Part shown: positions 39,965 through 52,481 of the stretch, in pieces
How the letters are laid out: each line of letters starts with the position of its first letter
How positions within the stretch are numbered: position 1 is the stretch's first letter
From: Pseudobdellovibrionaceae bacterium
GTDB lineage: Bacteria > Bdellovibrionota > Bdellovibrionia > Bdellovibrionales > Bdellovibrionaceae
Direction: 5' to 3'
Assembly (NCBI GenBank): GCA_043765175.1
Contig: JAYUJM010000096.1
Location: forward strand, 3,900 to 67,899
DNA: 64,000 nucleotides
Translations under genes and position numbers: made by a program
Notes under the pieces: generated by a model
Seen by the model: the letters and a program-made list of their open reading frames with translations, nothing else
Told to the model about the DNA's origin: nothing
The model's database searches: none

Positions 39965-40237
39965 TTATCGCGTGCCTTTGGCATTCGTTGACGAACCGTT
40001 AGGATCTGTTTTGCTTTTACCAGGCTGAGCTATATTTTTGCCATCAGTTAAACGACGATTTGAATTTTGGCATGTTACACAGGCGCCATGATTTACTCCT
40101 GGAACTAATGCGTTTGCCTCAGATTCACTACTGCCTTTATTCATTGCTAAATTAGGATCCTCTCCAGATCCTGCAAAAACCAAATTAGATACAAAAAATA
40201 ATAATAAAAACAAAAATTTCATAAAATGCCTTTCCAT
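39965..40237 (-). CDS. Hit-locus small secreted disordered protein, Bd0108-like
   Basis: Signal peptide, GEDPN motif, CVTC (CxxC), G/S/T/K-rich tail; immediately downstream of the YD-repeat gene as in the B. bacteriovorus hit locus. Likely start ATG 40222. Confidence 0.8.
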   Translation of the reverse strand: MERHFMKFLFLLLFFVSNLVFAGSGEDPNLAMNKGSSESEANALVPGVNHGACVTCQNSNRRLTDGKNIAQPGKSKTDPNGSSTNAKGTR

Positions 40238-41916
40238 TATAAATATAACTCTTGAGTCGCAGGAGCAATCACATCAAGCAAATTATTAAATGCACTGGCC
40301 ACTTGAGAAGCCACAGTAGGTCCATCTGGGCTATCTACTTTTTGAATTTCTCCAGTAGGCTTATAAATAACTTTTATAGTACCTAAACCCGGGCGAGTGA
40401 CTATCGACGGTTTTCCATAGCGCTCTTCGTAATCGATTTTTACAACTTTTTTAGCTTGATCAGTAATTGTTTGAATGCGTCCTTTTAAATCGTAGGTCAT
40501 TACTATTTTTTGACCTTCAGTGTTTTCGGCGTTGACCAAATTACCCTTAGCATCATATTTAAATTGTGTTGTTTTTGATGAGATCTGTTTATTTTTATCA
40601 TTCATTAAAATTGATTTCACAGAAGACACTTTTTTATTAGTATCGTCATATGAATATTCAATTTTTGTTAAACCTGCTGTTTTTGCTTTAACTAAACCGT
40701 CAGCAAAATACTCAAAATCAACGCGATCTGCATTGTTTTTTATAGTAATTGGTTTGCCAAGTGTTTCGTGATAAGTAATATCACGAGTATTTCCGTTTGT
40801 AACAGTTTGCACACGTGATAAAATCACTTCACCAGTAGCTAATTGTTTGTGCCAAAATTCATACCTATTATTTGCTACTGTTTCTTTTCCACAAACTTTT
40901 TTTGCTGTTGACCAGTAGTTGTATTTTGGATTTGTAGTTGAAACTTCATATTTATAGCTTTCTACACATTTTTCACGATCTGTAAAACTTGTTACCCAAT
41001 CTTTTACATTGTCATATTTAATCGCCACAAAAGTTTTATCTGGCCAGCTGGCCTTAGTCATATTGTGGAATTCATTATATTCAAAGTTATAAACATCAGT
41101 GTCTTTTTTAGCCCAAGCATTTTTATTCCAAATAAGATCATCCTGTTGATTATATTTATATTCAGAAACTAAACTGTTAGGTCCTGTAATTTTTTGAACT
41201 TTTTTATTTGGAAAATATTTAAAATTTATTTTTCTAGAATTATTATCTTCAATTTGTGTTAACAAATTGTTTAGATATTCAAATTTTAAAAAATTGCCAT
41301 TTTTATCATACATATGAGTCAGTTTGCCATCAGTCGAAAAGCGCTGATAGCTTCCATCAACAAGGGTTCTGGTATAAACACCTTTTGATAAAACAACATT
41401 TTCGACTTCTTTACCATTTGCTGATAATTTTTGTCCTTCTTTAATTGTAACGCCCAAACCATATTGATTTGCATAGTTAGATCTAATTTCTTGATCATCA
41501 AATAATTGCGTTTTTAAATTAGTCCAATATTCAGCACTACTGGAAGAAAATTTTTTATCAGCTTTCATTTTAGCTATAATAGAAGTTATTGTTTTATCGA
41601 CTTCTGCTTTGGTTAGTTCTTTTGCAGAAAATATAATTTCCTGACCATCGCCACATTCAGAAATTTTAACTGATCCCTCTGCCGTCAATTGAAGTTTAGT
41701 TTCATATTCTGAACACCATCCAAAACCAAACATGCCATTATAAATTGTCCGACTTTTATACGCACGCAAAATTCGCATATCATAACCATTACCTGGTATT
41801 TCCATATCAACCCATGAATTTGTATAACCTGCGTTGTTCATATCAACTAAGCCATAAGCTTTCATCGACAATAAACCTAAACATATAACCATCAATTTTT
41901 TAAAGTTCATATCCAT
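40237..41916 (-). CDS. YD/RHS-repeat exported protein, Bd0109-like (DUF6531-type N-terminus)
   Basis: Signal peptide; RAYKSR..YNGMFGFGWCS.YET; YDKNGN, YNQQDDL, YDAKGNL, YDLKGRI repeats; no PxxxxDPxG cleavage motif or toxin tip. Confidence 0.85.
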   Translation of the reverse strand: MDMNFKKLMVICLGLLSMKAYGLVDMNNAGYTNSWVDMEIPGNGYDMRILRAYKSRTIYNGMFGFGWCSEYETKLQLTAEGSVKISECGDGQEIIFSAKELTKAEVDKTITSIIAKMKADKKFSSSSAEYWTNLKTQLFDDQEIRSNYANQYGLGVTIKEGQKLSANGKEVENVVLSKGVYTRTLVDGSYQRFSTDGKLTHMYDKNGNFLKFEYLNNLLTQIEDNNSRKINFKYFPNKKVQKITGPNSLVSEYKYNQQDDLIWNKNAWAKKDTDVYNFEYNEFHNMTKASWPDKTFVAIKYDNVKDWVTSFTDREKCVESYKYEVSTTNPKYNYWSTAKKVCGKETVANNRYEFWHKQLATGEVILSRVQTVTNGNTRDITYHETLGKPITIKNNADRVDFEYFADGLVKAKTAGLTKIEYSYDDTNKKVSSVKSILMNDKNKQISSKTTQFKYDAKGNLVNAENTEGQKIVMTYDLKGRIQTITDQAKKVVKIDYEERYGKPSIVTRPGLGTIKVIYKPTGEIQKVDSPDGPTVASQVASAFNNLLDVIAPATQELYL

Positions 41917-41938: not shown

Positions 41939-42817
41939 TCAGACTTTAATTGTAACAATTTTTTTAATCATGACTCCACCTAAAATTTGTAATCCTAGCA
42001 TTCCGGCTAGTATCACTAGACCTAAGGTTGTATTAAACATAGGTTTCATATAGGCAGGATCTACTGCAAAGAAAACAGCACCTAAAATAAAAGGAATTGA
42101 AGTGACTATTATTCCTTGCATGACTCCTTGAGCTGTCATTGCGGAGATTTTTTTTTCAAGCTTTTGTCGTTCTCGAATTGTGCTCACAATAGTTGTGAAT
42201 GTTTCAGATAAATTTCCACCAGTTTCTTTTAAGATATTGATGGCCGTTACAAACATTTGAACATCTGGGCGAGGAATTCTTTCGCCTAAGTCAGTTAAAG
42301 CTTCTTCAAAACTTTGACCGAATTGCGTTTGTGTAATGACTTGTGCAAACTCCGATTTAATTGGGTTTGCCATGATGTCGACAACTCTTTGCATTGATTG
42401 TTGCGGATTAGATCCAGACTTAATTCCATTTCCCATAATTGTTAAAGCATCTACCATTTGATCAACAAATTGGGTGCACTTTTTTTCGTATAAATGTTTA
42501 TAAATCATCGGTACTACTTGAAAACCTGCTATTCCCATAGATAAACCAAAAAATGAAGCCATTGCAATATTTGGCAAGCATAAAATAAAAAATAAAAACC
42601 CTAAACCAAAAGTTGTAATCAATAACAATCGAGTTACTTTTTTTTCGTCAACTTCCATTCCAAGTAATTTCATGTGTAAAATAATTTGTGATTTTCTACT
42701 AATACTTTTTGCATAGACTTTGGTAAAAATTTTATCGGCCCAAATATAAATAGCCGCAAAAACAGATAAACCAAATAATGGCAGCATTATCCATTCATTT
42801 GCAAGAAGCTGATGCAT
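41939..42817 (-). CDS. tadB: Tad inner-membrane platform protein TadB (T2SS F family)
   Basis: FVDQMVDAL.IMGNGIKSG, ETGGNLSETF..I..TIRERQKLEKKI.AMTAQG; TM helices. Confidence 0.92.
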   Translation of the reverse strand: MHQLLANEWIMLPLFGLSVFAAIYIWADKIFTKVYAKSISRKSQIILHMKLLGMEVDEKKVTRLLLITTFGLGFLFFILCLPNIAMASFFGLSMGIAGFQVVPMIYKHLYEKKCTQFVDQMVDALTIMGNGIKSGSNPQQSMQRVVDIMANPIKSEFAQVITQTQFGQSFEEALTDLGERIPRPDVQMFVTAINILKETGGNLSETFTTIVSTIRERQKLEKKISAMTAQGVMQGIIVTSIPFILGAVFFAVDPAYMKPMFNTTLGLVILAGMLGLQILGGVMIKKIVTIKV

Positions 42818-42819
42818 GC

Positions 42820-45003
42820 TTAGCTCACTTTCTTTGTGGCTGTTATATTATTTGAAGGAACTGATGTAACAACTGGTTTAGGTACTTCATTGGAAAATAT
42901 TTCCATTGGAATATGTCCGCCTTTATCTTTTATTTCTTGAACAAAAGAAGGTACTGTTCCTGTCGCTTGAAATTGTCCTAATATTTTTCTATTTTTATCA
43001 TATCCAGTTTCTTTAAATCTAAATATTTCACCTAAACTAATTATATCACCCTGCATACCAAGAACTTCAGTAATGCTTATTATTTTTCGACTTCCATCAG
43101 ATAAACGAACGATTTGCACTATCAAATCCACAGCACCGGCGATTTGTTCACGAATAGCTCGAAGTGGCAAATCAAGTCCTGACATCATTACTAAAGTTTC
43201 TAAACGCGCTACACATTCTCGGGGTGAATTCGCGTGAGTTGTTGTCATTGAACCGTCATGGCCTGTATTCATCGCTTGGAGCATATCTAAAGCTGCTCCA
43301 TCACGTGTTTCTCCGACAACAATTCGATCAGGTCGCATTCGTAAAGCATTTTTAATTAAATCTCGAATTGTGACTGCATTTGTACCTTCCATCGAGGGTG
43401 GTCGTGTTTCAAGTCTGACAACATGTTCTTGCATCATTTGTAATTCAGCAGCATCTTCGACTGTTATGATTCTTTCATGTGATGGAATAAATTGTGATAT
43501 CATATTTAGCAATGAAGTTTTTCCTGAGCCTGTACCACCGCTAATAACAACGTTATATCCATATTCAACTGAAATTTTTAAAAACTCTAACATATTTAAG
43601 GTTGCACTACCGTAGTCGGCATACTTTTGTGGTGAAATTCCACCTTTTTTAAATTTTCGAATAGTTAATGCAGGTCCATCTAAGGCTAATGGTTCAATAA
43701 CAGCATTCACACGACTTCCATCTTTCAAGCGGGCATCAACGTAAGGTGATGCACTATTAATTTGTCGACCAAGTGGCGTTACAATGCGTTCAATAATTCT
43801 TCTTAAATGATCGTTTGATGTAAACTTAATTCCGCTGAGTTGGACTTTACCACTTTTTTCAACAAAAATCTTCGAGGCTCCGTTAACCATAATTTCTGAA
43901 ATGCTTGGATCTGCCAACATATCTTCTAGTGGACCTAAACCAAGTGCTTCTTCTAAAACTTCTTTCACCATTTTTTGTCGATCTTCTCGGGCCAAATCAG
44001 GTGCTTCTTTATCAACTATTTGTCCGATATCTCGTTGAGTTTTAGCACGAACTTCTTTTTCTTTTCCTTCGCTATCACCAGCTTCAGCAAGAATCTTTTT
44101 CAAATCCACAGTGCGAATAAGTTCTGAATGAACTCTTAATTTTAATAAAGTTCTAGCATCATAACCATTCGGGTTATTTGAACTATTCACTGCTTCTGCG
44201 TTACTAGCTGCTACTGGATTAGTCGCTTTAGGTTTTTGCAAAGTTTTTAATTTTTGCAAAGTACCGCTACTCAGCTTGCGTATAAAATCAAAATAAGCAT
44301 TTGAAATAGGACTTTTAGGATTTGTAACAACAAAGGGTTTCGACTGAACAAGGGATGCCATAGTTGTATTTTCATCTGATGGTATCATTCCCATTGGCAC
44401 TAATCCCAAATGTTGAGAAATCAACTGTGGTTGTAAACCATTAGATCCAAATTTATTAATAACCAGCTGAAACATTTCTTTTGGATAAGTATTCGTCAAT
44501 AATTCATTTATTAATCTTTGAGTTTGTTGAACAACTAATATTTCTGGAGTAGTCACAATTGTAATGGCTGTGGCATCTTGTAGAATTGCATTTTGCATTG
44601 GACCAATATCATTTCCACAATCAACAACAATAAACTTAAAACTTCTTGAAAAAAATTCAATCAGCTTTGATAAATTTTCAGGACTTACGCTAAGTATTTC
44701 ATCTGGTCCGCGCACAGCGCCTAAAAAAGAAAAACCTGCTGGATGTTGTGCTACAATTTGTTGTATTGGTGTTGCATTTAAAGATTGTGTAGAATTAGCT
44801 AGCTCACGCAATGTTTTAACTGGTTTTAGTCCAGTAATAATATTTTGATCACCTGCGCTTTTGCTATCACAATCAATAAGTAAAACAGGAGTACGTAATT
44901 CTTGAGTCATTGCCGCAGTCAAGTTTGCAGCAAAAATTGATTTACCAACTCCGCCTTTACCGCCGACTATTGCAATTAAACTACAATTTGGATTCAATGC
45001 CAT
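42820..45003 (-). CDS. tadA: TadZ/CpaE (MinD/ParA-like)-TadA/CpaF ATPase fusion
   Basis: N-terminal GGKGGVGKS deviant Walker A; C-terminal LGLGPLE..L.DP.ISEIMVNG, SGGTGSGKT, LRMRPDRIVVGE, AMNTGHDGS. Confidence 0.93.
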   Translation of the reverse strand: MALNPNCSLIAIVGGKGGVGKSIFAANLTAAMTQELRTPVLLIDCDSKSAGDQNIITGLKPVKTLRELANSTQSLNATPIQQIVAQHPAGFSFLGAVRGPDEILSVSPENLSKLIEFFSRSFKFIVVDCGNDIGPMQNAILQDATAITIVTTPEILVVQQTQRLINELLTNTYPKEMFQLVINKFGSNGLQPQLISQHLGLVPMGMIPSDENTTMASLVQSKPFVVTNPKSPISNAYFDFIRKLSSGTLQKLKTLQKPKATNPVAASNAEAVNSSNNPNGYDARTLLKLRVHSELIRTVDLKKILAEAGDSEGKEKEVRAKTQRDIGQIVDKEAPDLAREDRQKMVKEVLEEALGLGPLEDMLADPSISEIMVNGASKIFVEKSGKVQLSGIKFTSNDHLRRIIERIVTPLGRQINSASPYVDARLKDGSRVNAVIEPLALDGPALTIRKFKKGGISPQKYADYGSATLNMLEFLKISVEYGYNVVISGGTGSGKTSLLNMISQFIPSHERIITVEDAAELQMMQEHVVRLETRPPSMEGTNAVTIRDLIKNALRMRPDRIVVGETRDGAALDMLQAMNTGHDGSMTTTHANSPRECVARLETLVMMSGLDLPLRAIREQIAGAVDLIVQIVRLSDGSRKIISITEVLGMQGDIISLGEIFRFKETGYDKNRKILGQFQATGTVPSFVQEIKDKGGHIPMEIFSNEVPKPVVTSVPSNNITATKKVS

Positions 45004-45022: not shown

Positions 45023-46729
45023 TTATTCTTTTAATCTAAATTTTTTCTTAACTTGTTCAACGCCAGCACTTGCAGAGGATTTAATAATTGGTGTCACAAA
45101 GACAACGAAATTTCCACCATCTTTACGATACCCTTTGCCAGCAGATAAAGTGAGTAATGCTTTCGGATCAGTTGGTATTCCGTAATCATTTGAACTTGAT
45201 TTGCTAATCACACCACCAAATGCAGCACTTTGACGATCACGTACAGTAATTGTTGTTGAAATATTAGTGGTCGGAGTAAGTGTGTCACCAGTTGTTGTAG
45301 ATGAAACGACTAGGCCACCTAATTTAACTAGTCCAGCTCGAGGCTGCGTGATTTCCGGTTTAACAGAAACGCTAACAGAACTAACAGCACCATTTTGACT
45401 ATTTTTAGAACTTAAAGTTCTTGCAATAGTCGCCTGTCCTTTATTTTCTGTTAATACAGAAGCCGTGTCTAAGACTTTTAAAAATCCGTGGGTTTTTCCC
45501 CATTGAATTTTAGGAAAAATATTTTGGACAAGGGCCGCTAATGAATCAATACTGTTTTGTGATTGCTGAGCTGTATTCAATTGTAAGGCACTAGTCGTTG
45601 AAATAATGGGTTGAAAATCAAATTTAAAATTTTTCGCATATCTTTCACTAAATTCAACAAAGTGGACTACTATTTGAATCATCTTTTCAGGTGGTTCTTC
45701 CTTGTCTTCAGCTTTTCGAACATTGATTAAATTTAATATGTAATCTCCAGCTCCGCCGGTGATACTTCGATCTTTAATTAATAAATTTGGAACGCCACCC
45801 ATATTTGTATTTGTCACTGAAGCGGGTAGGTAAATAGCCACCAAATCTTGAACTCGAGTTTTTTCTTCTTGGCTATTTACAGTGCCTTCAAGCTTAATGT
45901 AATCGCCCACAACAGTGATAGTGACTTCGGGATTATTAATTTCACGCGCGATGTAATCCACAATTCTTTTTCTGGCGACAGGACTTAGTGTCACTAAACT
46001 TTTCACTGCGATAGGAGCAGTTCCTGCAGCAGCCCCTCCTGCTGTTCCAGGAGTTTGTCCATATGTTGTAATTACACTTCCTAATCGATTTAAATCTTGG
46101 GGTAACATGACGTAGCCATCGATGACAACGCCACCATTCACCGCTTTAAATTCCAGGCCTTCGATGTCAATTAATAGCGCTTTTAAATCACGTATGGCTT
46201 TATCAACTGCAGAGTCCCGAATATCTAAATGGAGTTCTGCATATATTTGACCTGTTTTTTTATTGTGTAATGTCACTATTCCGCTGGCAGCAGCTAGGGG
46301 CTCAATTCGAAAAATATCTGAATTTTTAATTCGCGCAATACTAATCATTGTTTGACCCACAGGAAGTATTTTCAAAGGCTGACTTGGTATTAATATTTCT
46401 TCATCTATTTTAACACCTTTTATCAATGATAAATGACGGCGAATTCTTCTTTTATTTGGTAAGGCTTCTGCTAAAATTTTAACGGGTTCTTTTGAATCTT
46501 CTAAATATTCATCTTCAACAGCTGATTGAACAAGTGTTGATTCAACTGGTGGCTTCGGTTCTACAGGATTATCTATCCCGTTTTGAGCCCACAAATTTTG
46601 AAATAAAAAAATAAATAAAAAATAAATTTTTAACTTATTGAACTTGAATAAATAACTATTTTCCTGGTTTAATTTGTCCACCATTATAGTTTGGCTGAAT
46701 TTGCGTTGGAAATCCACTGGACTGGCCAA
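45023..46729 (-). CDS. rcpA: Tad secretin RcpA/CpaC with BON-like domains
   Basis: N-terminal Ig-like segment, IKLEGTVNSQEEK BON pattern, MIQIVVHFVE..AAFGGVI..FVVFVTP secretin core. True start probably near 46687, not 46729. Confidence 0.8.
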   Translation of the reverse strand: MASPVDFQRKFSQTIMVDKLNQENSYLFKFNKLKIYFLFIFLFQNLWAQNGIDNPVEPKPPVESTLVQSAVEDEYLEDSKEPVKILAEALPNKRRIRRHLSLIKGVKIDEEILIPSQPLKILPVGQTMISIARIKNSDIFRIEPLAAASGIVTLHNKKTGQIYAELHLDIRDSAVDKAIRDLKALLIDIEGLEFKAVNGGVVIDGYVMLPQDLNRLGSVITTYGQTPGTAGGAAAGTAPIAVKSLVTLSPVARKRIVDYIAREINNPEVTITVVGDYIKLEGTVNSQEEKTRVQDLVAIYLPASVTNTNMGGVPNLLIKDRSITGGAGDYILNLINVRKAEDKEEPPEKMIQIVVHFVEFSERYAKNFKFDFQPIISTTSALQLNTAQQSQNSIDSLAALVQNIFPKIQWGKTHGFLKVLDTASVLTENKGQATIARTLSSKNSQNGAVSSVSVSVKPEITQPRAGLVKLGGLVVSSTTTGDTLTPTTNISTTITVRDRQSAAFGGVISKSSSNDYGIPTDPKALLTLSAGKGYRKDGGNFVVFVTPIIKSSASAGVEQVKKKFRLKE

Positions 46730-47516
46730 AGGAATTGGTTACCTTATTTAAAACTGTTTCTGATGTTGAGGCGGGCAAACGCCGACCCACACTTTTGTCA
46801 TTTGGATTACGCAGCAAAAAGTACAGACTGCCTGGACTTGTGGCTATAAGTGCCAATAAATCTTGGGCTTCTGAAGGATTTACTTCAATTGTTAGTGAAC
46901 TGTATTTTGTGTCGCCCGTTAATGTATTTAAAACTAAATTTTTTCCAGAAGCATCACGCTCAATAGTTCGTGGCAAATTATTATTAATATTCACACCTGT
47001 TGCTAATATAATTACATTTTCTTTGTAAAGCACAGTGCTTTTTGTTTGATTCACACCTTTACCTGATTCAACGATTGCAAATATGTCAACACGATCCCCA
47101 GGTCGTATTAATTTTGCATTAGCACGTGCCTCATCAACAGGAATTGTTACTGCTCGCATATTTAATGAAACTTGTGGAGCCATTCCAGTTTCGGGTCCTG
47201 GTTCTAACATTTTATTTTTTGTAAATGTTTGCCCTTTTTTGATTGGAATAGCCGCAACTTTACCGATGATATCACCAATATCTTTGTAGGCTTCAGGTTC
47301 AACTTCATCTTTTAGTTTTTCCTTAACTTCAAGTTTATCATCAAAAACAGTATCCATACTGCCAATGTCTTCTTTGGCGACAACAACACGAACTTTAGAA
47401 CCCATTTTTTTATCCATCTCAGCTTTTTTTTCTTGAGTGTATGAATACAACATAAAGGTCGCAAAAATTCCTGCTCCTAAAGAGATCCATAAATTTCTTG
47501 ATTCATTTGGTCCCAT
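46656..47516 (-). CDS. cpaB: Flp pilus assembly protein CpaB/RcpC
   Basis: TM, SAF domain VVVAKEDI..IGKVAAIPIKKGQ, MRAVTIPVD, IRPGDRVDI. Confidence 0.92.
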   Translation of the reverse strand: MGPNESRNLWISLGAGIFATFMLYSYTQEKKAEMDKKMGSKVRVVVAKEDIGSMDTVFDDKLEVKEKLKDEVEPEAYKDIGDIIGKVAAIPIKKGQTFTKNKMLEPGPETGMAPQVSLNMRAVTIPVDEARANAKLIRPGDRVDIFAIVESGKGVNQTKSTVLYKENVIILATGVNINNNLPRTIERDASGKNLVLNTLTGDTKYSSLTIEVNPSEAQDLLALIATSPGSLYFLLRNPNDKSVGRRLPASTSETVLNKVTNSFGQSSGFPTQIQPNYNGGQIKPGK

Positions 47517-47553: not shown

Positions 47554-48090
47554 CTACTGACTCGGTTCACAATCGGCATTTAAACAGATTCCATAAACGG
47601 TCTTAACCCATATTTCTGGAGTTTGTGGCAATTCCTCTTCAGATTTAGCCGGAAGTCTAGATACTGCAGACCAGACCGAAGACTTGTTTGCAAAACTATG
47701 ATTACTGAATTCAGTTCCTTGACCGTTTCCAGTTTGGCTAAACATCGAAATACTTCGAACTGTTACAGGCCATTTACCTTTATTAAAATCTTTTTTCTGA
47801 TACCCATCACCAATGACACCGTGAACACGATTCATTGATTTCGCATAATTTGAAGTTCCCGCTCCAGGACGAAAATAAATGAGATTAGCACGAAATCGAA
47901 AAGTTTCTAATGTGTAATTATAAGATCCAATCGAGTTTAATATTCCTGAATGAACTGCGCCGAAAAAACCTAAAGAAAAATTAAAAACAATAACAACCAT
48001 AAATAACACTGGCAAAGCTTCTATCAAAGCCATTCCTTGATTATTCATTTTTTTCTTTTTTCTAAACTGAATTAAATTTATTTTTAACAT
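47554..48090 (-). CDS. TadE/TadF-like minor pilin
   Basis: NNQG/MALIEALPVLF class III processing site with E+5 and hydrophobic helix. Confidence 0.8.
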   Translation of the reverse strand: MLKINLIQFRKKKKMNNQGMALIEALPVLFMVVIVFNFSLGFFGAVHSGILNSIGSYNYTLETFRFRANLIYFRPGAGTSNYAKSMNRVHGVIGDGYQKKDFNKGKWPVTVRSISMFSQTGNGQGTEFSNHSFANKSSVWSAVSRLPAKSEEELPQTPEIWVKTVYGICLNADCEPSQ

Positions 48091-48674
48091 CCGTTATCCT
48101 CATGAGGAAAATAACGAGATTGATCATCCGTAAATCCAGAAAATTCTGTACGTATGACTTTATATTTTTCAGCTTGAAATTTTAAACATTCATCAACTGA
48201 TGGATTTCGTAGTAAAAAGGCATTCAAATTCATTTTGAATGAATCTTCATTGATGGCTATTTTTCCTAAAAATGGAATTTTTAACCCCTTAAATAATTTT
48301 AACTCTAGTGTGCTGCTAGATCCCGCCCAGGGGTGACGGGATTCATCACCTAGTGCATTAACTGCGTCTGCAGTAAAAGTTTTGGCATCTAAATCACCCA
48401 ATTTGTATTTTTTTAATTCAAACCAATTTGAACTTCCTTGAGTCAGCAGCGGAAAATATTTAGATAAATTTTCAAACTTTTTTACAGCAGCAGCCTCACT
48501 GGCTTCTTTGCTTGAATTACCAGAAGAGTACGCCCGTGCCGATGACCAAGTAATATATTGCGCTACTTCGATCGTCATTAATGAAAAAGTTAATGCAAAC
48601 ACAATAATGCCGCAGCAAATAACTAAAACAAATGAAAATAAAAATTCTGCAGCCACAAAACCTTGTTGATTCAT
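48084..48674 (-). CDS. TadE-like minor pilin
   Basis: NQQG/FVAAEFLFSF, E+5; AQYITWSSARAY. Confidence 0.82.
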   Translation of the reverse strand: MNQQGFVAAEFLFSFVLVICCGIIVFALTFSLMTIEVAQYITWSSARAYSSGNSSKEASEAAAVKKFENLSKYFPLLTQGSSNWFELKKYKLGDLDAKTFTADAVNALGDESRHPWAGSSSTLELKLFKGLKIPFLGKIAINEDSFKMNLNAFLLRNPSVDECLKFQAEKYKVIRTEFSGFTDDQSRYFPHEDNGC

Positions 48675-48683
48675 AGAATTATT

Positions 48684-48983
48684 TTACAACGGATCAGAAC
48701 TTAATGCTCGATTTATTGAATTAGGATGGCAATTTGCAGCCCTTTGACTGGGACCGCCTTTGATCGAGCTGCAGGGATTTTTCCAAGCACCGAACTCGCT
48801 CATGTTACGAACTTTACTAATTGATACATCTGCAAAGTTTTGCATTGTTTGTTTTTCACGAAGTTGTTTTGTGAAAAATAAAAATGTACCAATGAAAATA
48901 GTCATTAATAAAACTGCCTCGATTGCCAACTGACCATTTTCATTTTTAAGAATTTTTTTGGTTAATCGTCGGTTCTGTTCCAT
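48684..48983 (-). CDS. Flp/TadE-like minor pilin
   Basis: KNENG/QLAIEAVLLM, E+5; C-terminal Cys pair. Confidence 0.8.
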   Translation of the reverse strand: MEQNRRLTKKILKNENGQLAIEAVLLMTIFIGTFLFFTKQLREKQTMQNFADVSISKVRNMSEFGAWKNPCSSIKGGPSQRAANCHPNSINRALSSDPL

Positions 48984-49168
48984 GGAACTTTATCCTCGTC
49001 CCCACCACCAGGGTAGGGTTTAAATCCAGATCCAGTTGCCAGTTGAGTTTCGACCCGTGCAGCCAAACGCACTCCGCCCTTTTCAAAGGCCGTCTTCGGT
49101 GCTTTCATTAAGGTCGACATAAAGACGACCCCGCCCATCAACAAAAGGAGTACGTATTCTATTGTCAT
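48962..49168 (-). CDS. Flp-like pilin lacking a leader peptide (flp2-like)
   Basis: MTIEYVLLLLMGGVVF has the Flp EY motif but starts at the +2 position of a mature pilin; 102/207 G+C by hand count. Confidence 0.65.
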   Translation of the reverse strand: MTIEYVLLLLMGGVVFMSTLMKAPKTAFEKGGVRLAARVETQLATGSGFKPYPGGGDEDKVPWNRTDD

Positions 49169-49171
49169 GGG

Positions 49172-49375
49172 TTACTGATCAGAGGTAGCAGTACCCATAT
49201 CAGTACCTAACTTATCGGTTGCTTCATTAAATTTTCCAACGATTTTTCCTTTAAAAGCTAAGACTAATCCAACTACCACTACCAACAACAAAATATACTC
49301 TGTTGCGCCTTGGCCTTTTTCATTATTAGCTAAATTTTTTCGTAGACGATTTCTTAGATTTGAAAATAGTTTCAT
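49172..49375 (-). CDS. flp: Major Flp (type IVc/Tad) pilin
   Basis: NEKG/QGATEYILLLVVVVGLV; AAGGGAG RBS. Confidence 0.93.
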   Translation of the reverse strand: MKLFSNLRNRLRKNLANNEKGQGATEYILLLVVVVGLVLAFKGKIVGKFNEATDKLGTDMGTATSDQ

Positions 49376-49399
49376 ATGATTTTCTCCCTTATATTTTCT

Positions 49400-49427
49400 G
49401 TATCGTCCTTTGGTCTGTGAAACTTTA
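49400..49427 (-). promoter_or_regulatory. sigma28-like promoter of flp/Tad operon
   Basis: TAAAGTTT-N12-GACGATAC (consensus TAAAGTTT-N11-GCCGATAA; spacer one base long). Confidence 0.45.
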
Positions 49428-49488: not shown

Positions 49489-49533
49489 TGACTTTTTCGG
49501 AGTGTTTTCCGAAAAAGTCTTGACTTTTTCGGA
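49489..49533. repeat. Three copies of GACTTTTTCGGA (direct, inverted, direct): operator-like array
   Basis: TGACTTTTTCGGA 49489-49501, TCCGAAAAAGTCT 49508-49520, TGACTTTTTCGGA 49521-49533; partial TCCGAAA at 49540-49546. Confidence 0.75.
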
Positions 49534-49536
49534 TTT

Positions 49537-50694
49537 GTGTCCGAAATTGTCACAATGAAAGAACGTTACATTTCAAAGTATTTATTAAAATATGCCGATC
49601 GAAAAATAATTTTACTTTCTGGACCAAGACAAGTAGGAAAAACAACATTAGCTAAAAGTCTTATTAAAGACTACTCCTATTATAACTACGATTCTCCTAA
49701 GGATTTTAGTATTTTTTTAAATAATAATTGGAACTTGGAATCTGAGTTAGTTATTTTTGACGAACTTCACAAAATGAATAAATGGAAACTCTGGCTGAAA
49801 GGTCATTTTGATGATGACTTATTAAAAAAGCAGAAAGTGTTAGTCACTGGAAGCGCACAACTTGATTTAGCAAAAAAAGTTGGAGACTCACTAGCTGGGC
49901 GTTATTTTTCATATCGACTAAACCCTTTAGATCTTAAAGAACTTAAAGGTTATGATAAAGTAGAAAATAATTATCAAAATTTGATTTCATACAGTGGTTT
50001 TCCTGAGCCTTTTTTTGAAAAAGATGCTTATTTTTATGATAAATGGAGGCGAACACACGCCGATATAATTTTACGACAAGATTTGATGTCTGTTGAAAAT
50101 ATTAAAGATATACAAAGCATTGAAATACTAATCGAACTTTTATCTGAACGAATAGGTTCGACTATATCAGTTAACTCGTTAGCTGAAGACTTAAGTAAAG
50201 ATGAAAAAACAATAAAAAAATGGATTCAATCTCTTGAAAATTTATATATAATTTTTAAAGTTAGTCCTTACTCAAAAAATATTTCTCGTTCAATTAAAAA
50301 AGCGAGTAAGTATTATTTTTATGATTCAGCCAGAGTCAGTGGTGATGAGTCACAGAAATTAGAAAATCTAGTTGCGCTTTCATTAAAAAAAGAAATTGAA
50401 TATCAGACTGATTTTTTCGGAAAAAATCACAGACTCTATTTTGCTAAACTAAAAGATCAAAAAGAAATAGATTTTTTAATTACAAATGATAAAAAAGTGA
50501 CGAGTCTTATTGAAGTAAAATTAAGCAATGTTTCAGTATCAGAAAATTTTAAACATTTTGATAAATTTTTTAAAGACGTTAATAAAATTCAACTTGTCAA
50601 AAATATGAGCCGATCATTTTCTAATAAAGAGTCGGTTCTTGTTACGCCAGCACTTGATTATTTAGAAAACTTAAACTTAGATGAATCAAACTAG
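49537..50694 (+). CDS. AAA+ ATPase (AAA_14) with DUF4143 C-terminus
   Basis: SGPRQVGKTT, IFDELHK, VTGSA, LAGR, YSGFPEP, wHTH middle, K.YFYD, ENLVA, KEIDF. Start possibly ATG 49555. Confidence 0.9.
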   Translation: MSEIVTMKERYISKYLLKYADRKIILLSGPRQVGKTTLAKSLIKDYSYYNYDSPKDFSIFLNNNWNLESELVIFDELHKMNKWKLWLKGHFDDDLLKKQKVLVTGSAQLDLAKKVGDSLAGRYFSYRLNPLDLKELKGYDKVENNYQNLISYSGFPEPFFEKDAYFYDKWRRTHADIILRQDLMSVENIKDIQSIEILIELLSERIGSTISVNSLAEDLSKDEKTIKKWIQSLENLYIIFKVSPYSKNISRSIKKASKYYFYDSARVSGDESQKLENLVALSLKKEIEYQTDFFGKNHRLYFAKLKDQKEIDFLITNDKKVTSLIEVKLSNVSVSENFKHFDKFFKDVNKIQLVKNMSRSFSNKESVLVTPALDYLENLNLDESN

Positions 50695-50708: not shown

Positions 50709-52481
50709 ATGAAAAAAATAATCCTATTACTTATTTTACCCCTTATCAGTTTTGCTGAAACAAAACTGACTCCAATCAGAAAATTAACTGATCAAACGAC
50801 TGAAGATCTGCAAAAAATTGATCCTTTTTATGATTACATGAACGTGACTAAACGGCCTGGTAAAGAATTTGGTAATGAGTTTTTACCAAACCAAAATGAA
50901 GTTTATAAAAAAATAATCTTGAAAGCTGAAAAAGAATTTAATAAAATTAAAAATACAGCGGTTGATTCCATTGAAAAAGATACAGTTTATCTGTTTGAAG
51001 AATTTATAGCTTCTAGTAAAAAATATTTTAACAAACCTGAATATGAACAAGTTTCTAGATTACTTTCAGTTTCACATTTATGGAATCGTGCCAAAGCGTA
51101 TTCCGATATGGGTGCTGGCGTAGCCTCTTTTCCTTTTGAAATATATGCAGATTTTGAAAACTATATTGACCGTTCTAATGGAATACCTTTATGGGTTGAT
51201 AGCTACATCAGTGAAACTAAGTTAATAAATAAAAAAGGTTATTTGTTAAGTCAGCAAAACATGCAACATTTACTTGAAAATTTTGAATCTTTAATAACTG
51301 AAGATTTAAAAAAATCAAAATTCTATAATCCGATATTAATGGCAGAAAAAACTTTAAAAAAAGAGGATATAGAAAAGCTAGAAAAAAAGTATGCCTTAGC
51401 TATTGAAAAAACAATTTTTCCAAGTATAAAAAAAATGACTGCTTTTTTGAAAACAAATATGAAAAACACCAAGCCTGAATTTGGGTTATTTGGACTTAAA
51501 AATGGAAAAAAGTTTTACAATGACAGATTAGAAGATTCAACAGATCAAATTGGCTTAAACGCAGAAGATCTTCATAGTTTAGGTCTTTCTGAAGTCGAAA
51601 AAAATAAACTATTAATAACAGATGTAAAAAATAAAATGGGTTATTCCAAAAAAACATTTGCTGAGTTTATTAAATTTAAAAGTGAAGATAGTAACTCTTA
51701 TTTTACAAATAAAACAGATTTAGAAAAAAGTTTTCGAGATGCTGAAAAACTTGTAGACTCTAAGGTCAGAAATTATTTTTCAACTATTCCCAAAACACCA
51801 CTTGAATTAAGACCAATTGATCATCTTAAAAGTCCTGCTGGATCATACAGTGGACTTACTGATACAATTGATAAAGCCTATTTTAATTATAACAGTGCAG
51901 ATTTAAAGGCTACTTCAAAAGCTGAAACACACACATTGTACGTGCATGAAGGCGTACCTGGGCATCATTTCCAATTATCAATTAATCACGATTTAAAAAA
52001 TCAATTTGGAAAATTCCGCGGTGAAATGTATGGATCGACTGCCTTTGTCGAGGGTTGGGCTCTTTATGCAGAATACCTAGGGCGTGAAATGGGAGTCTAT
52101 GAAACGAATGAACACAAGCTTGGAAATTATTCAGATGATATGCTTCGCGCTGTAAGACTTGTTGTAGATACTGGAATTCATTCAATGGGCTGGAGCCGTG
52201 AAAAAGCGATCCAATTTATGACTGATAATATTCCAGAAAATCGAGAAGGAATGGTCACTGAAATCGATCGTTATGCAGTTTGGCCTGGACAAGCCTTAGG
52301 CTACAAAGTGGGACAACTTGAAATTATTAAACTACGAACTCAGGCAGAAAAAGAATTAGGTTCAAAATTTGATATTAAAGAATTTCATAAAACAGTTTTA
52401 GAGTCCGGAAGTATTAATTTAAAATTACTTCGAATTAAAGTAGCCGATTGGATTAAAAGTACTCAATCAAAATTAAAATAA
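50709..52481 (+). CDS. DUF885 family exported protein
   Basis: Signal peptide; LHSLGL.EV, HEGVPGHHFQ, AFVEGWALYAE, RAVRLVVDTGIH..GWSRE.AI, EIDRY..WPGQALGYKVG. Confidence 0.93.
   Translation: MKKIILLLILPLISFAETKLTPIRKLTDQTTEDLQKIDPFYDYMNVTKRPGKEFGNEFLPNQNEVYKKIILKAEKEFNKIKNTAVDSIEKDTVYLFEEFIASSKKYFNKPEYEQVSRLLSVSHLWNRAKAYSDMGAGVASFPFEIYADFENYIDRSNGIPLWVDSYISETKLINKKGYLLSQQNMQHLLENFESLITEDLKKSKFYNPILMAEKTLKKEDIEKLEKKYALAIEKTIFPSIKKMTAFLKTNMKNTKPEFGLFGLKNGKKFYNDRLEDSTDQIGLNAEDLHSLGLSEVEKNKLLITDVKNKMGYSKKTFAEFIKFKSEDSNSYFTNKTDLEKSFRDAEKLVDSKVRNYFSTIPKTPLELRPIDHLKSPAGSYSGLTDTIDKAYFNYNSADLKATSKAETHTLYVHEGVPGHHFQLSINHDLKNQFGKFRGEMYGSTAFVEGWALYAEYLGREMGVYETNEHKLGNYSDDMLRAVRLVVDTGIHSMGWSREKAIQFMTDNIPENREGMVTEIDRYAVWPGQALGYKVGQLEIIKLRTQAEKELGSKFDIKEFHKTVLESGSINLKLLRIKVADWIKSTQSKLK

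Follow-up and report, generated by a model that had tools for sequence, protein, structure and literature searches.

Flp2, a leaderless pilin-like protein encoded directly behind flp1 in the tad/hit locus of Bdellovibrionales

We analysed a stretch of 64,000 nucleotides (nt) from a Pseudobdellovibrionaceae bacterium (assembly GCA_043765175.1, contig JAYUJM010000096.1; this whole stretch is called the window), in which a short open reading frame (ORF) directly behind the pilin gene flp1 encodes a Flp-like protein without a leader. The closest described protein is Flp2 of Bdellovibrio bacteriovorus. Avidan et al. 2017 (Sci Rep 7:1013, PMC5430801) described bd0118 (flp2), which lies beside bd0119 (flp1), as a 'trimmed' Flp that begins MXXEY, with both the Gly and the next residue missing. 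They found Flp2 in Bdellovibrio tad loci, including that of B. exovorus JSS, and not in Bacteriovorax, ruled out an upstream extension of the gene and reported TadV to be absent from Bdellovibrio (PMC5430801). According to the same study, flp2 is expressed in attack phase, and control of flp1-flp2 by FliA was shown in both B. bacteriovorus and B. exovorus. The gene could not be deleted in the wild type, a host-independent deletion strain was non-predatory and could be complemented, and neither flp1 nor other flp genes could replace flp2 (PMC5430801). Flp2 is essential for prey invasion by Bdellovibrio, although type IV pilins are defined by the very leader and cleavage that it lacks.

Three further groups of pilins serve for comparison. 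Flp2 shares with the canonical Flp prepilins (PF04964 Flp_Fap, PF16982 Flp1_like) a length of about 65 amino acids (aa), a predicted all-helical fold and an E-Y-(I/V)-L-L-L helix in the same register. Unlike them, it has no basic leader, no Gly(-1), no G/XXXXEY motif and no Pfam match, and its Glu stands at position 4 (3 after removal of Met), whereas the Glu of canonical Flp proteins is at +5. TadE, TadF and TadG are pilin-like and belong to the same operon, as Flp2 does, and these low-abundance proteins are thought to prime or cap the fibre. They are, however, larger proteins and prepilin-peptidase substrates with a G/xxxxE site, a description that fits the three ORFs downstream of flp2 and not Flp2 itself. 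In the Kil system, the Tad-like predation pilus of Myxococcus xanthus, KilK and KilO are small all-helical adapter Flp minor pilins (Nat Commun 2025, PMC12075869). They are weakly transcribed and jointly required to prime the pilus, to seat its tips and for predation, and their genes adjoin those of the minor (tip) pilins and, in cluster II, one for a prepilin peptidase (PMC12075869). Flp2 resembles KilK and KilO in that it is small, predicted to be all-helical, not the major pilin and encoded beside three G/xxxxE pilin-like ORFs.

The flp2 gene of the window lies on the minus strand at 48962-49168, as delimited by the ORF, family alignments and BLASTP. Its 68-aa product, MTIEYVLLLLMGGVVFMSTLMKAPKTAFEKGGVRLAARVETQLATGSGFKPYPGGGDEDKVPWNRTDD, has the N-terminus MTIEYVLLLL and a hydrophobic helix at residues 5-21. 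We located Bd0118 in a single-contig genome of 3,782,950 bp through the published primer pPROBE-NT-bd0118-F, whose 3' part exactly matches the start of the ORF, and this primer-located ORF of strain HD100 is the same one that our family profile matches (E = 9.5e-21). Bd0118 (MTVEYVLLLF...GWDGETR, 64 aa) and the window protein align over their full length with 45% identity (BLASTP, E = 2e-18). The gene order in the window is that of the HD100 locus: flp1, flp2, pseudopilins, rcpC, a 568-aa ORF, tadZA, tadB, an RHS protein and a 90-aa ORF (HD100 order: PMC5430801). Alignment and gene order show the window ORF to be the orthologue of Flp2 (Bd0118). It belongs to a kind of gene known since its publication in 2017 and is not a new kind.

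The likeness to HD100 extends to the details. In both, the gene stands directly after flp1 in the tad/hit locus, the protein begins M-x-x-E-(Y) and continues into a hydrophobic helix with neither Gly(-1) nor leader, and a FliA-type promoter motif, in the window a pattern match, lies upstream of flp1. There are two differences: HD100 has a gap of about 50 nt between flp1 and flp2, with the G-run AAGGGGGA before the ATG, whereas the window has a gap of 3 nt and no Shine-Dalgarno (SD) sequence; and the window lineage uses G/C-ending codons that are rare in its genome, unlike HD100, where flp2 has a GC content at third codon positions (GC3) of 0.55 in a locus of 0.50 GC. Nothing categorical separates the two proteins. 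Judged by the genomes compared, three points go beyond the 2017 paper: the family spans a whole GTDB order, it co-occurs with tadV elsewhere in that order, and it carries a conserved C-terminal motif. We consider that Flp2 identity and an adapter or priming mechanism, taken jointly, best explain the window gene, with a probability of roughly 0.6.

Start site, conservation and pilin register

Read on the minus strand, flp1 ends GAT CAG TAA (stop codon at 49174-49172), CCC follows at 49171-49169, and ATG ACA ATA GAA TAC opens flp2, with its start codon at 49168-49166. The flp1 stop and the flp2 ATG are thus spaced by 3 nt, and both genes share one frame. A leader is impossible because an in-frame stop codon lies two codons 5' of the ATG, and a Flp leader sought in the other frames before flp2 was not found. 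The 20 nt that precede flp2 (ctacctctgatcagtaaccc) contain no SD-like sequence; flp1, by contrast, has AAGGGAG. The initial annotation of this DNA had described a second ORF in frame behind flp1, without leader or Gly(-1) in any frame and without a clear ribosome-binding site. It placed the M-T-I-E-Y start at mature position +2, noted G/xxxxE sites in four neighbours, and set 49% GC with many G/C third positions against 33% GC in flp1. All of these observations hold in our analysis. The sighting was correct, and what is new here is only the codon and GC oddity and the comparative details.

The missing leader could in principle be an artefact, produced by an assembly error, a wrong start or a read-through fusion of Flp1 and Flp2, and we give this a negligible probability. 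The two ORFs of the window do lie in frame, one TAA and one codon apart, and the stop occupies the exact position that a Gly(-1) codon would take. However, the same start recurs in dozens of independent assemblies, complete genomes included, which rules out the assembly error that would restore a leader. A common frame for flp1 and flp2 occurs in about half of the orthologous loci, with different frames in the rest and gaps from -1 to 93 nt. On this comparison the shared frame of the window is a coincidence, and a read-through fusion with flp1 is ruled out because the common frame is not conserved across loci. Stop codons stand immediately 5' of the flp2 ATG in every lineage among the extracted loci, and lineages with a long gap have their own SD before the same ATG.

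The distribution of SD motifs gives further information on the start. Among loci with a gap of at most 12 nt, the window locus included, none of 14 has an SD-like motif before flp2; with gaps above 12 nt, 8 of 14 loci have the motif when the rule is strict, and a G-run is found in another 4 (Fisher P = 0.002). As the SD is found only with long gaps, the annotated flp2 ATG is supported as the true start. For the window lineage, the combination of a 3-nt gap and no SD points to termination-reinitiation coupling, by which flp2 is likely translated in dependence on flp1; the stop and spacer TAA-CCC (49169-49174, minus strand) would be the likely coupling site. The database protein for the window gene (P0119) has 58 aa and begins at Met11 (MGGVVFMS...); this source gene call is almost certainly too short and probably misses the true start, which lacks an SD and is shared by all relatives.

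Residue 2 is Thr in 219 of the 271 family members and otherwise mostly Val, Ser or Ala. With any of these four at position 2, the initiator Met can be cleaved off. Since nearly all members have one of them there, the Met of Flp2 is probably removed, which would make T-I-E-Y the mature N-terminus.

A six-frame search of 40 relatives brought the genomes with an flp2 ORF to 36 of 41; no genome of 90% completeness or more lacks the gene (31 of 31 have it), and it occurs in each of the 15 genera sampled. The open frames in the relatives comprise only 62-97 codons, which leaves no room for a leader. Every Flp2 copy of the extracted loci starts M-(T/S)-x-E directly after a stop codon, and every copy in the loci examined is immediately preceded by a canonical flp1. 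Among 5.8 billion proteins searched with a profile, 365 Flp2 members were found; all have 58-77 aa and the name 'hypothetical protein', and the source is in almost every case a Bdellovibrio, Pseudobdellovibrio or Bdellovibrionales bin. A hidden Markov model scan of 1.84 billion cluster representatives gave 165 Flp2 clusters, nearly all of them aligned from residue 1 or 2. In a 200-genome sample of the phylum, each of 43 Bdellovibrionales genomes had a single strong match, and the other orders gave just weak, ordinary Flp-like matches. Across these samples, flp2 is a fixed single-copy part of the tad/hit locus in the order Bdellovibrionales and always lies behind flp1; throughout the order it is leaderless, a state of ancient origin. 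The sole family member with a conventional N-terminal signal anchor, P0267, comes from a 616-nt contig with 1.1x coverage, and we do not rely on it.

Comparison of the Flp2 and Flp1 families with hhalign (probability 75%, E = 2.5e-5, 36 columns) aligns E4 of Flp2 to E(+5) of Flp1. Met1 of Flp2 therefore corresponds to position +2 of a mature pilin, and Flp2 never carries a leader or a peptidase site because its reading frame begins at that position. Glu is found at position 4 in 252 of 271 members. Invariant in the family alignment are M1, T2, E4, L8, P24, L35, R38, E40, G46, F49 and W63, and the conserved residues also include F28 and T45. Several of them fall into a conserved post-helix block, P..F..GG.RLAARVE..L.TG.GF...W, which has no counterpart in Flp1, where this region is variable. 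Conservation in Flp2 thus extends beyond the pilin helix to the C-terminal segment. In the AlphaFold2 prediction, which has a pLDDT (predicted local distance difference test) score of 74, residues 2-45 form a single helix and a disordered tail follows.

Peptidase context and proposed role of Flp2

The genome of the window has one A24 peptidase, PilD-like and about 280 codons long, encoded on another contig (C24). This single PilD-like peptidase fits the report that Bdellovibrio lacks TadV, and it also fits the described processing of Flp1 by PilD (bioRxiv 10.64898/2026.07.08.737194). Elsewhere in the order, in no fewer than eight families or genera, a tadV-like gene for an A24 peptidase of 154-182 aa directly follows flp2 (loci L017, L019-L022, L024, L030 and L031), with the motifs DDLxxRKxxN and GAGDxKL; three of these flp2-adjacent peptidases were checked against Pfam and matched with E values of 3e-12 to 8e-11. 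In the genus of the window, a 99-aa pseudopilin gene and not tadV stands after flp2. Since flp2 and a dedicated tadV coexist in other families, the missing leader is not a compensation for a lost peptidase, and loss of the leader in response to loss of tadV is ruled out as an explanation. A leaderless Flp2 beside a dedicated TadV in many families speaks for a design feature rather than a repair, and the order flp1-flp2-tadV in these families qualifies the published absence of TadV from Bdellovibrio. A 174-aa metagenomic protein (P0161) has an N-terminal half from Flp2 and a C-terminal half from a TadV-like peptidase, which may reflect a deletion, a calling artefact or a real fusion.

One of three explanations offered in the initial annotation was a peptidase-independent, pre-cleaved pilin. 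This is the standing published view (PMC5430801) and a plausible one, compatible with all data presented here. By analogy, we propose more specifically that Flp2 may be a coupled, low-copy, peptidase-independent adapter or priming minor pilin, a mechanism to which we give somewhat less than an even chance. An adapter or priming role is proposed because flp2 has the major pilin gene on one side and three pseudopilin genes on the other, is required for predation and is not interchangeable with Flp1. The gene would be transcribed with flp1 from the FliA-type promoter and translated by termination-reinitiation coupling to flp1, and its rare codons would hold Flp2 output below that of Flp1. After removal of the initiator Met, Flp2 would insert into the inner membrane as a 'born-mature' subunit without the action of a peptidase. 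There, at low copy, this minor pilin would serve as adapter or primer, with its N-terminal helix packed into the Flp1 filament and its conserved C-terminal segment docking the tip complex formed by the three downstream pseudopilins, analogous to KilK and KilO.

Several points weigh against such a role. The likeness to KilK and KilO is drawn from described features and not from sequence homology, and these two proteins, unlike Flp2, carry a leader and a G/XXXXE cleavage motif. The flp2 product matches no Pfam family at E <= 1, no NCBIfam family and no PDB sequence, and Foldseek gave no match to PDB. The rare-codon excess described below is confined to some lineages and is therefore not essential to the mechanism. 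Mass spectrometry of HD100 found Flp1 and not Flp2 (PMC5430801). Finally, the charges flanking the helix are distributed against expectation for a pilin: across 251 members, Lys and Arg are absent before the helix, where one Glu stands, and together average 2.6 over the 15 residues that follow it. Under the positive-inside rule, such a distribution speaks for an N-out/C-in orientation, opposite to the N-in/C-out orientation of a pilin, and raises a testable doubt about how Flp2 sits in the membrane.

The last two points, the charge pattern and the mass spectrometry, also favour an alternative in which Flp2 is not a filament subunit. It would instead be an inverted inner-membrane protein (N-out, with the basic C-terminal helix in the cytoplasm) or a membrane product mimic, and would act on TadB/C, TadZA or the peptidase. 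Such a charge pattern is typical of N-out YidC substrates, for example the Pf3 coat protein. However, the helix of mature Flp1 is followed by the same basic stretch, and this protein is periplasmic. An inverted protein would also agree with the post-helix segment being the most conserved part, which is unusual for an exposed pilin surface and is variable in Flp1, and with the position of flp2 next to tadV in many families. On the other hand, the first 20 residues keep the pilin register including the packing Glu, for which there is little reason in a mere membrane anchor. The existence of a Flp2-TadV fusion in the database (P0161) is a further point in favour, but this protein is possibly an assembly or gene-calling artefact. 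Taken together, we regard an inverted or product-mimic Flp2 as the main rival, although a rather unlikely one, and prefer the adapter or priming minor pilin. More speculative again is that Flp2 would be the only known pilin-class protein to bypass the prepilin peptidase by design, with a dose relative to Flp1 hard-wired in the mRNA, through SD-less reinitiation 3 nt past the flp1 stop and through codons held rare in the face of complete synonymous turnover, or else an N-out product mimic that gates the Tad machine of predatory bacteria; this we consider unlikely.

Codon usage of flp2

The GC content of flp2 is 0.49-0.50, compared to 0.33 in flp1. Its GC3 is 0.50 versus 0.228 +/- 0.034 for the genome, where the maximum among 1705 long ORFs is 0.45. 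From its amino acids and the codon usage of the genome, a GC of 0.42 and a GC3 of 0.268 +/- 0.048 would be expected (z about +4.8), and a GC3 of 0.50 was reached in none of 5000 simulations. Amino-acid composition alone was rejected as the cause, since it accounts for only about half of the GC excess (0.42 expected, 0.50 observed). Among segments of 68 codons, a GC3 of at least 0.50 is found in 4 of 9099, and in none of the 715 with a similarly high GC at first and second positions. The codons GTC, GGG, CTC, CTG, CGG, ACC, CCC and TCG used by flp2 are rare in the genome, and only 23 of the 9099 segments have codons as rare. The genes for DnaK, GroEL, EF-G, AtpD and RpoC have a GC3 of 0.18-0.26, and the codons of flp2 are even less favoured in this set, which rules out translational selection for optimal codons.

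The excess is shared by part of the family. In the two closest relatives, L101 and L098 (both metagenomic), flp2 has a GC3 of 0.44-0.45 against a background of 0.25-0.27 (z about +3), and 34-54% of synonymous third positions agree with those of the window gene. A second clade (G024, G018, G016) shows an excess with z of 2.1-3.4. As a family-wide trait the excess is ruled out: the mean difference in other families is -0.04, and most members of the genus have no excess. Over 61 loci (the window and L033-L101), flp2 GC3 follows host GC3 with a slope of 0.61 +/- 0.08, lying 0.09 above the host in AT-rich genomes (P = 0.006) and 0.05 below it in GC-rich ones (P = 0.001), so that, whichever way the genome leans, the codon usage of flp2 shows less bias. 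Because the closest relatives retain the excess while their synonymous sites have turned over, it is maintained in the most AT-rich lineages and is not the relic of one event. It may serve to throttle the output or the elongation rate of Flp2, or it may stem from occasional exchange among lineages. Maintained rare-codon usage in the most AT-rich lineages could be a sign that the dosage of a minor subunit is controlled.

A further option in the initial annotation was a recently imported pilin allele that lost its leader on recombination; the donor would be a relative with higher GC, and the loss would have occurred at the recombination junction. We reject this explanation as very improbable. 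It would agree with the GC step at the borders of flp2 and with the few other stretches or genes of the genome with GC3 above 0.4, which look mobile or foreign (an integrase-like gene, for example); the slope of 0.61 across the 61 loci could also come from occasional exchange among lineages. However, the leaderless form is universal and syntenic in the order, with the gene in place in 31 of 31 good-quality relatives. Moreover, flp2 and the flanking pseudopilin genes have the same nearest relatives (L101, L098, L002 and L003). At identical residues, third-position identity to these four is 0.34-0.57, no higher than in the flanks, and therefore no recent donor is visible. L101 and L098 also share the GC3 excess against AT-rich flanks. 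Orthologues with the same GC and a normal leader, which had been named as the finding that would overturn the original interpretation, did not appear: the orthologues have a similar GC and no leader.

The third explanation was a structured RNA element that steps expression down after the major pilin. Such an element, for example an attenuator or stabiliser, would lower downstream expression and leave the ORF incidental; this is, if anything, a shade less probable than import. Local stems are present in the minimum-free-energy fold, and the annotated stem GTCGTCTT/AAGACGGC exists. Nevertheless, dinucleotide shuffles fold as stably as the region itself (z = -0.34). RNAalifold on 12 orthologues yielded -0.96 kcal/mol with 11 scattered pairs, the terminator scan found no terminator-like site between flp1 and flp2 or on the coding strand, and Rfam gave nothing within the gene, its hits elsewhere being below threshold. 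Preservation of GC3 despite synonymous turnover is something that non-specific selection for stable RNA could bring about, but synonymous sites are not conserved and the GC3 excess is absent in most other lineages. At the protein level, 11 residues are invariant across the order, and the gene is required in HD100 (PMC5430801). A role of the RNA in stepping expression down thus has no support from the fold, RNAalifold, terminator, Rfam or synonymous-site tests.

Surrounding locus

All genes of the tad/hit locus are on the minus strand. The flp1 gene (49172-49375) encodes a canonical Flp prepilin of 67 aa with a basic leader, a G21/Q22 cleavage site and Glu at +5 (Pfam Flp1_like, E = 5e-8, and alignment). 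Sequence inspection places its SD region (AAGGGAGAAA) at 49381-49390. Further upstream, at 49401-49427, a pattern match gives a sigma-28 (FliA)-like promoter, TAAAGTTT-N12-GACGATA, which by the same kind of match is kept in most relatives of the genus. Each of the four neighbours of flp2 carries a G/xxxxE site, that of flp1 being KG/QGATEY. The other three are a 99-aa pilin-like protein (48684-48983, NG/QLAIEA), a 196-aa pseudopilin-like protein (48084-48674, QG/FVAAEF) and a 178-aa pseudopilin-like protein (47554-48090, QG/MALIEA), the latter two assigned by motif and without a Pfam match.

The ATG of the 99-aa gene is embedded in the codons of the invariant Pro62-Trp63 of flp2 (CCATGG), and the two genes overlap by 22 nt (48962-48983). 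The sequence CCATGGAACAGA at this overlap is retained in the closest relatives, and flp1, flp2 and the 99-aa gene may therefore be translationally chained. Antisense to the 99-aa gene, at 48842-48949 on the plus strand, Rfam gives a sub-threshold match to 23S-methyl (33.6 bits against a gathering threshold of 50, E = 0.0055), which is probably due to chance.

The pseudopilin genes are followed by RcpC/CpaB (46656-47516; Pfam RcpC, E = 6e-18) and by a 568-aa ORF (45023-46729) at the position of the RcpA secretin. The latter has no Pfam match at E <= 1e-4 and may be a divergent secretin. The next gene (42820-45003) encodes a TadZ-TadA fusion ATPase of 727 aa with ParA/MinD-like and T2SSE domains in Pfam; a TadZA hybrid has likewise been described for B. 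bacteriovorus (bioRxiv 10.64898/2026.07.08.737194). A TadB/TadC-type platform protein (T2SSF in Pfam) is encoded at 41939-42817. By position alone, a 559-aa RHS-repeat/DUF6531 protein and a 90-aa ORF (together 39965-41916) occupy the place of the hit genes, Bd0109/Bd0108 of HD100.

Upstream of flp1, the locus adjoins a divergent gene for an ATPase with AAA_14 and DUF4143 domains (49537-50694, plus strand). Between it and the flp1 promoter, at 49490-49533 on the plus strand, two overlapping palindromes, GACTTTTTCGGA-N-TCCGAAAAAGTC, are perfect or near-perfect and were flagged as terminator-like; they could serve as a bidirectional terminator or as an operator. The ATPase gene is situated between flp1 and a DUF885 gene (50709-52481). 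In the closest relative, L101, the DUF885 gene adjoins flp1 directly, and the AAA_14/DUF4143 gene therefore looks like an insertion in the lineage of the window.

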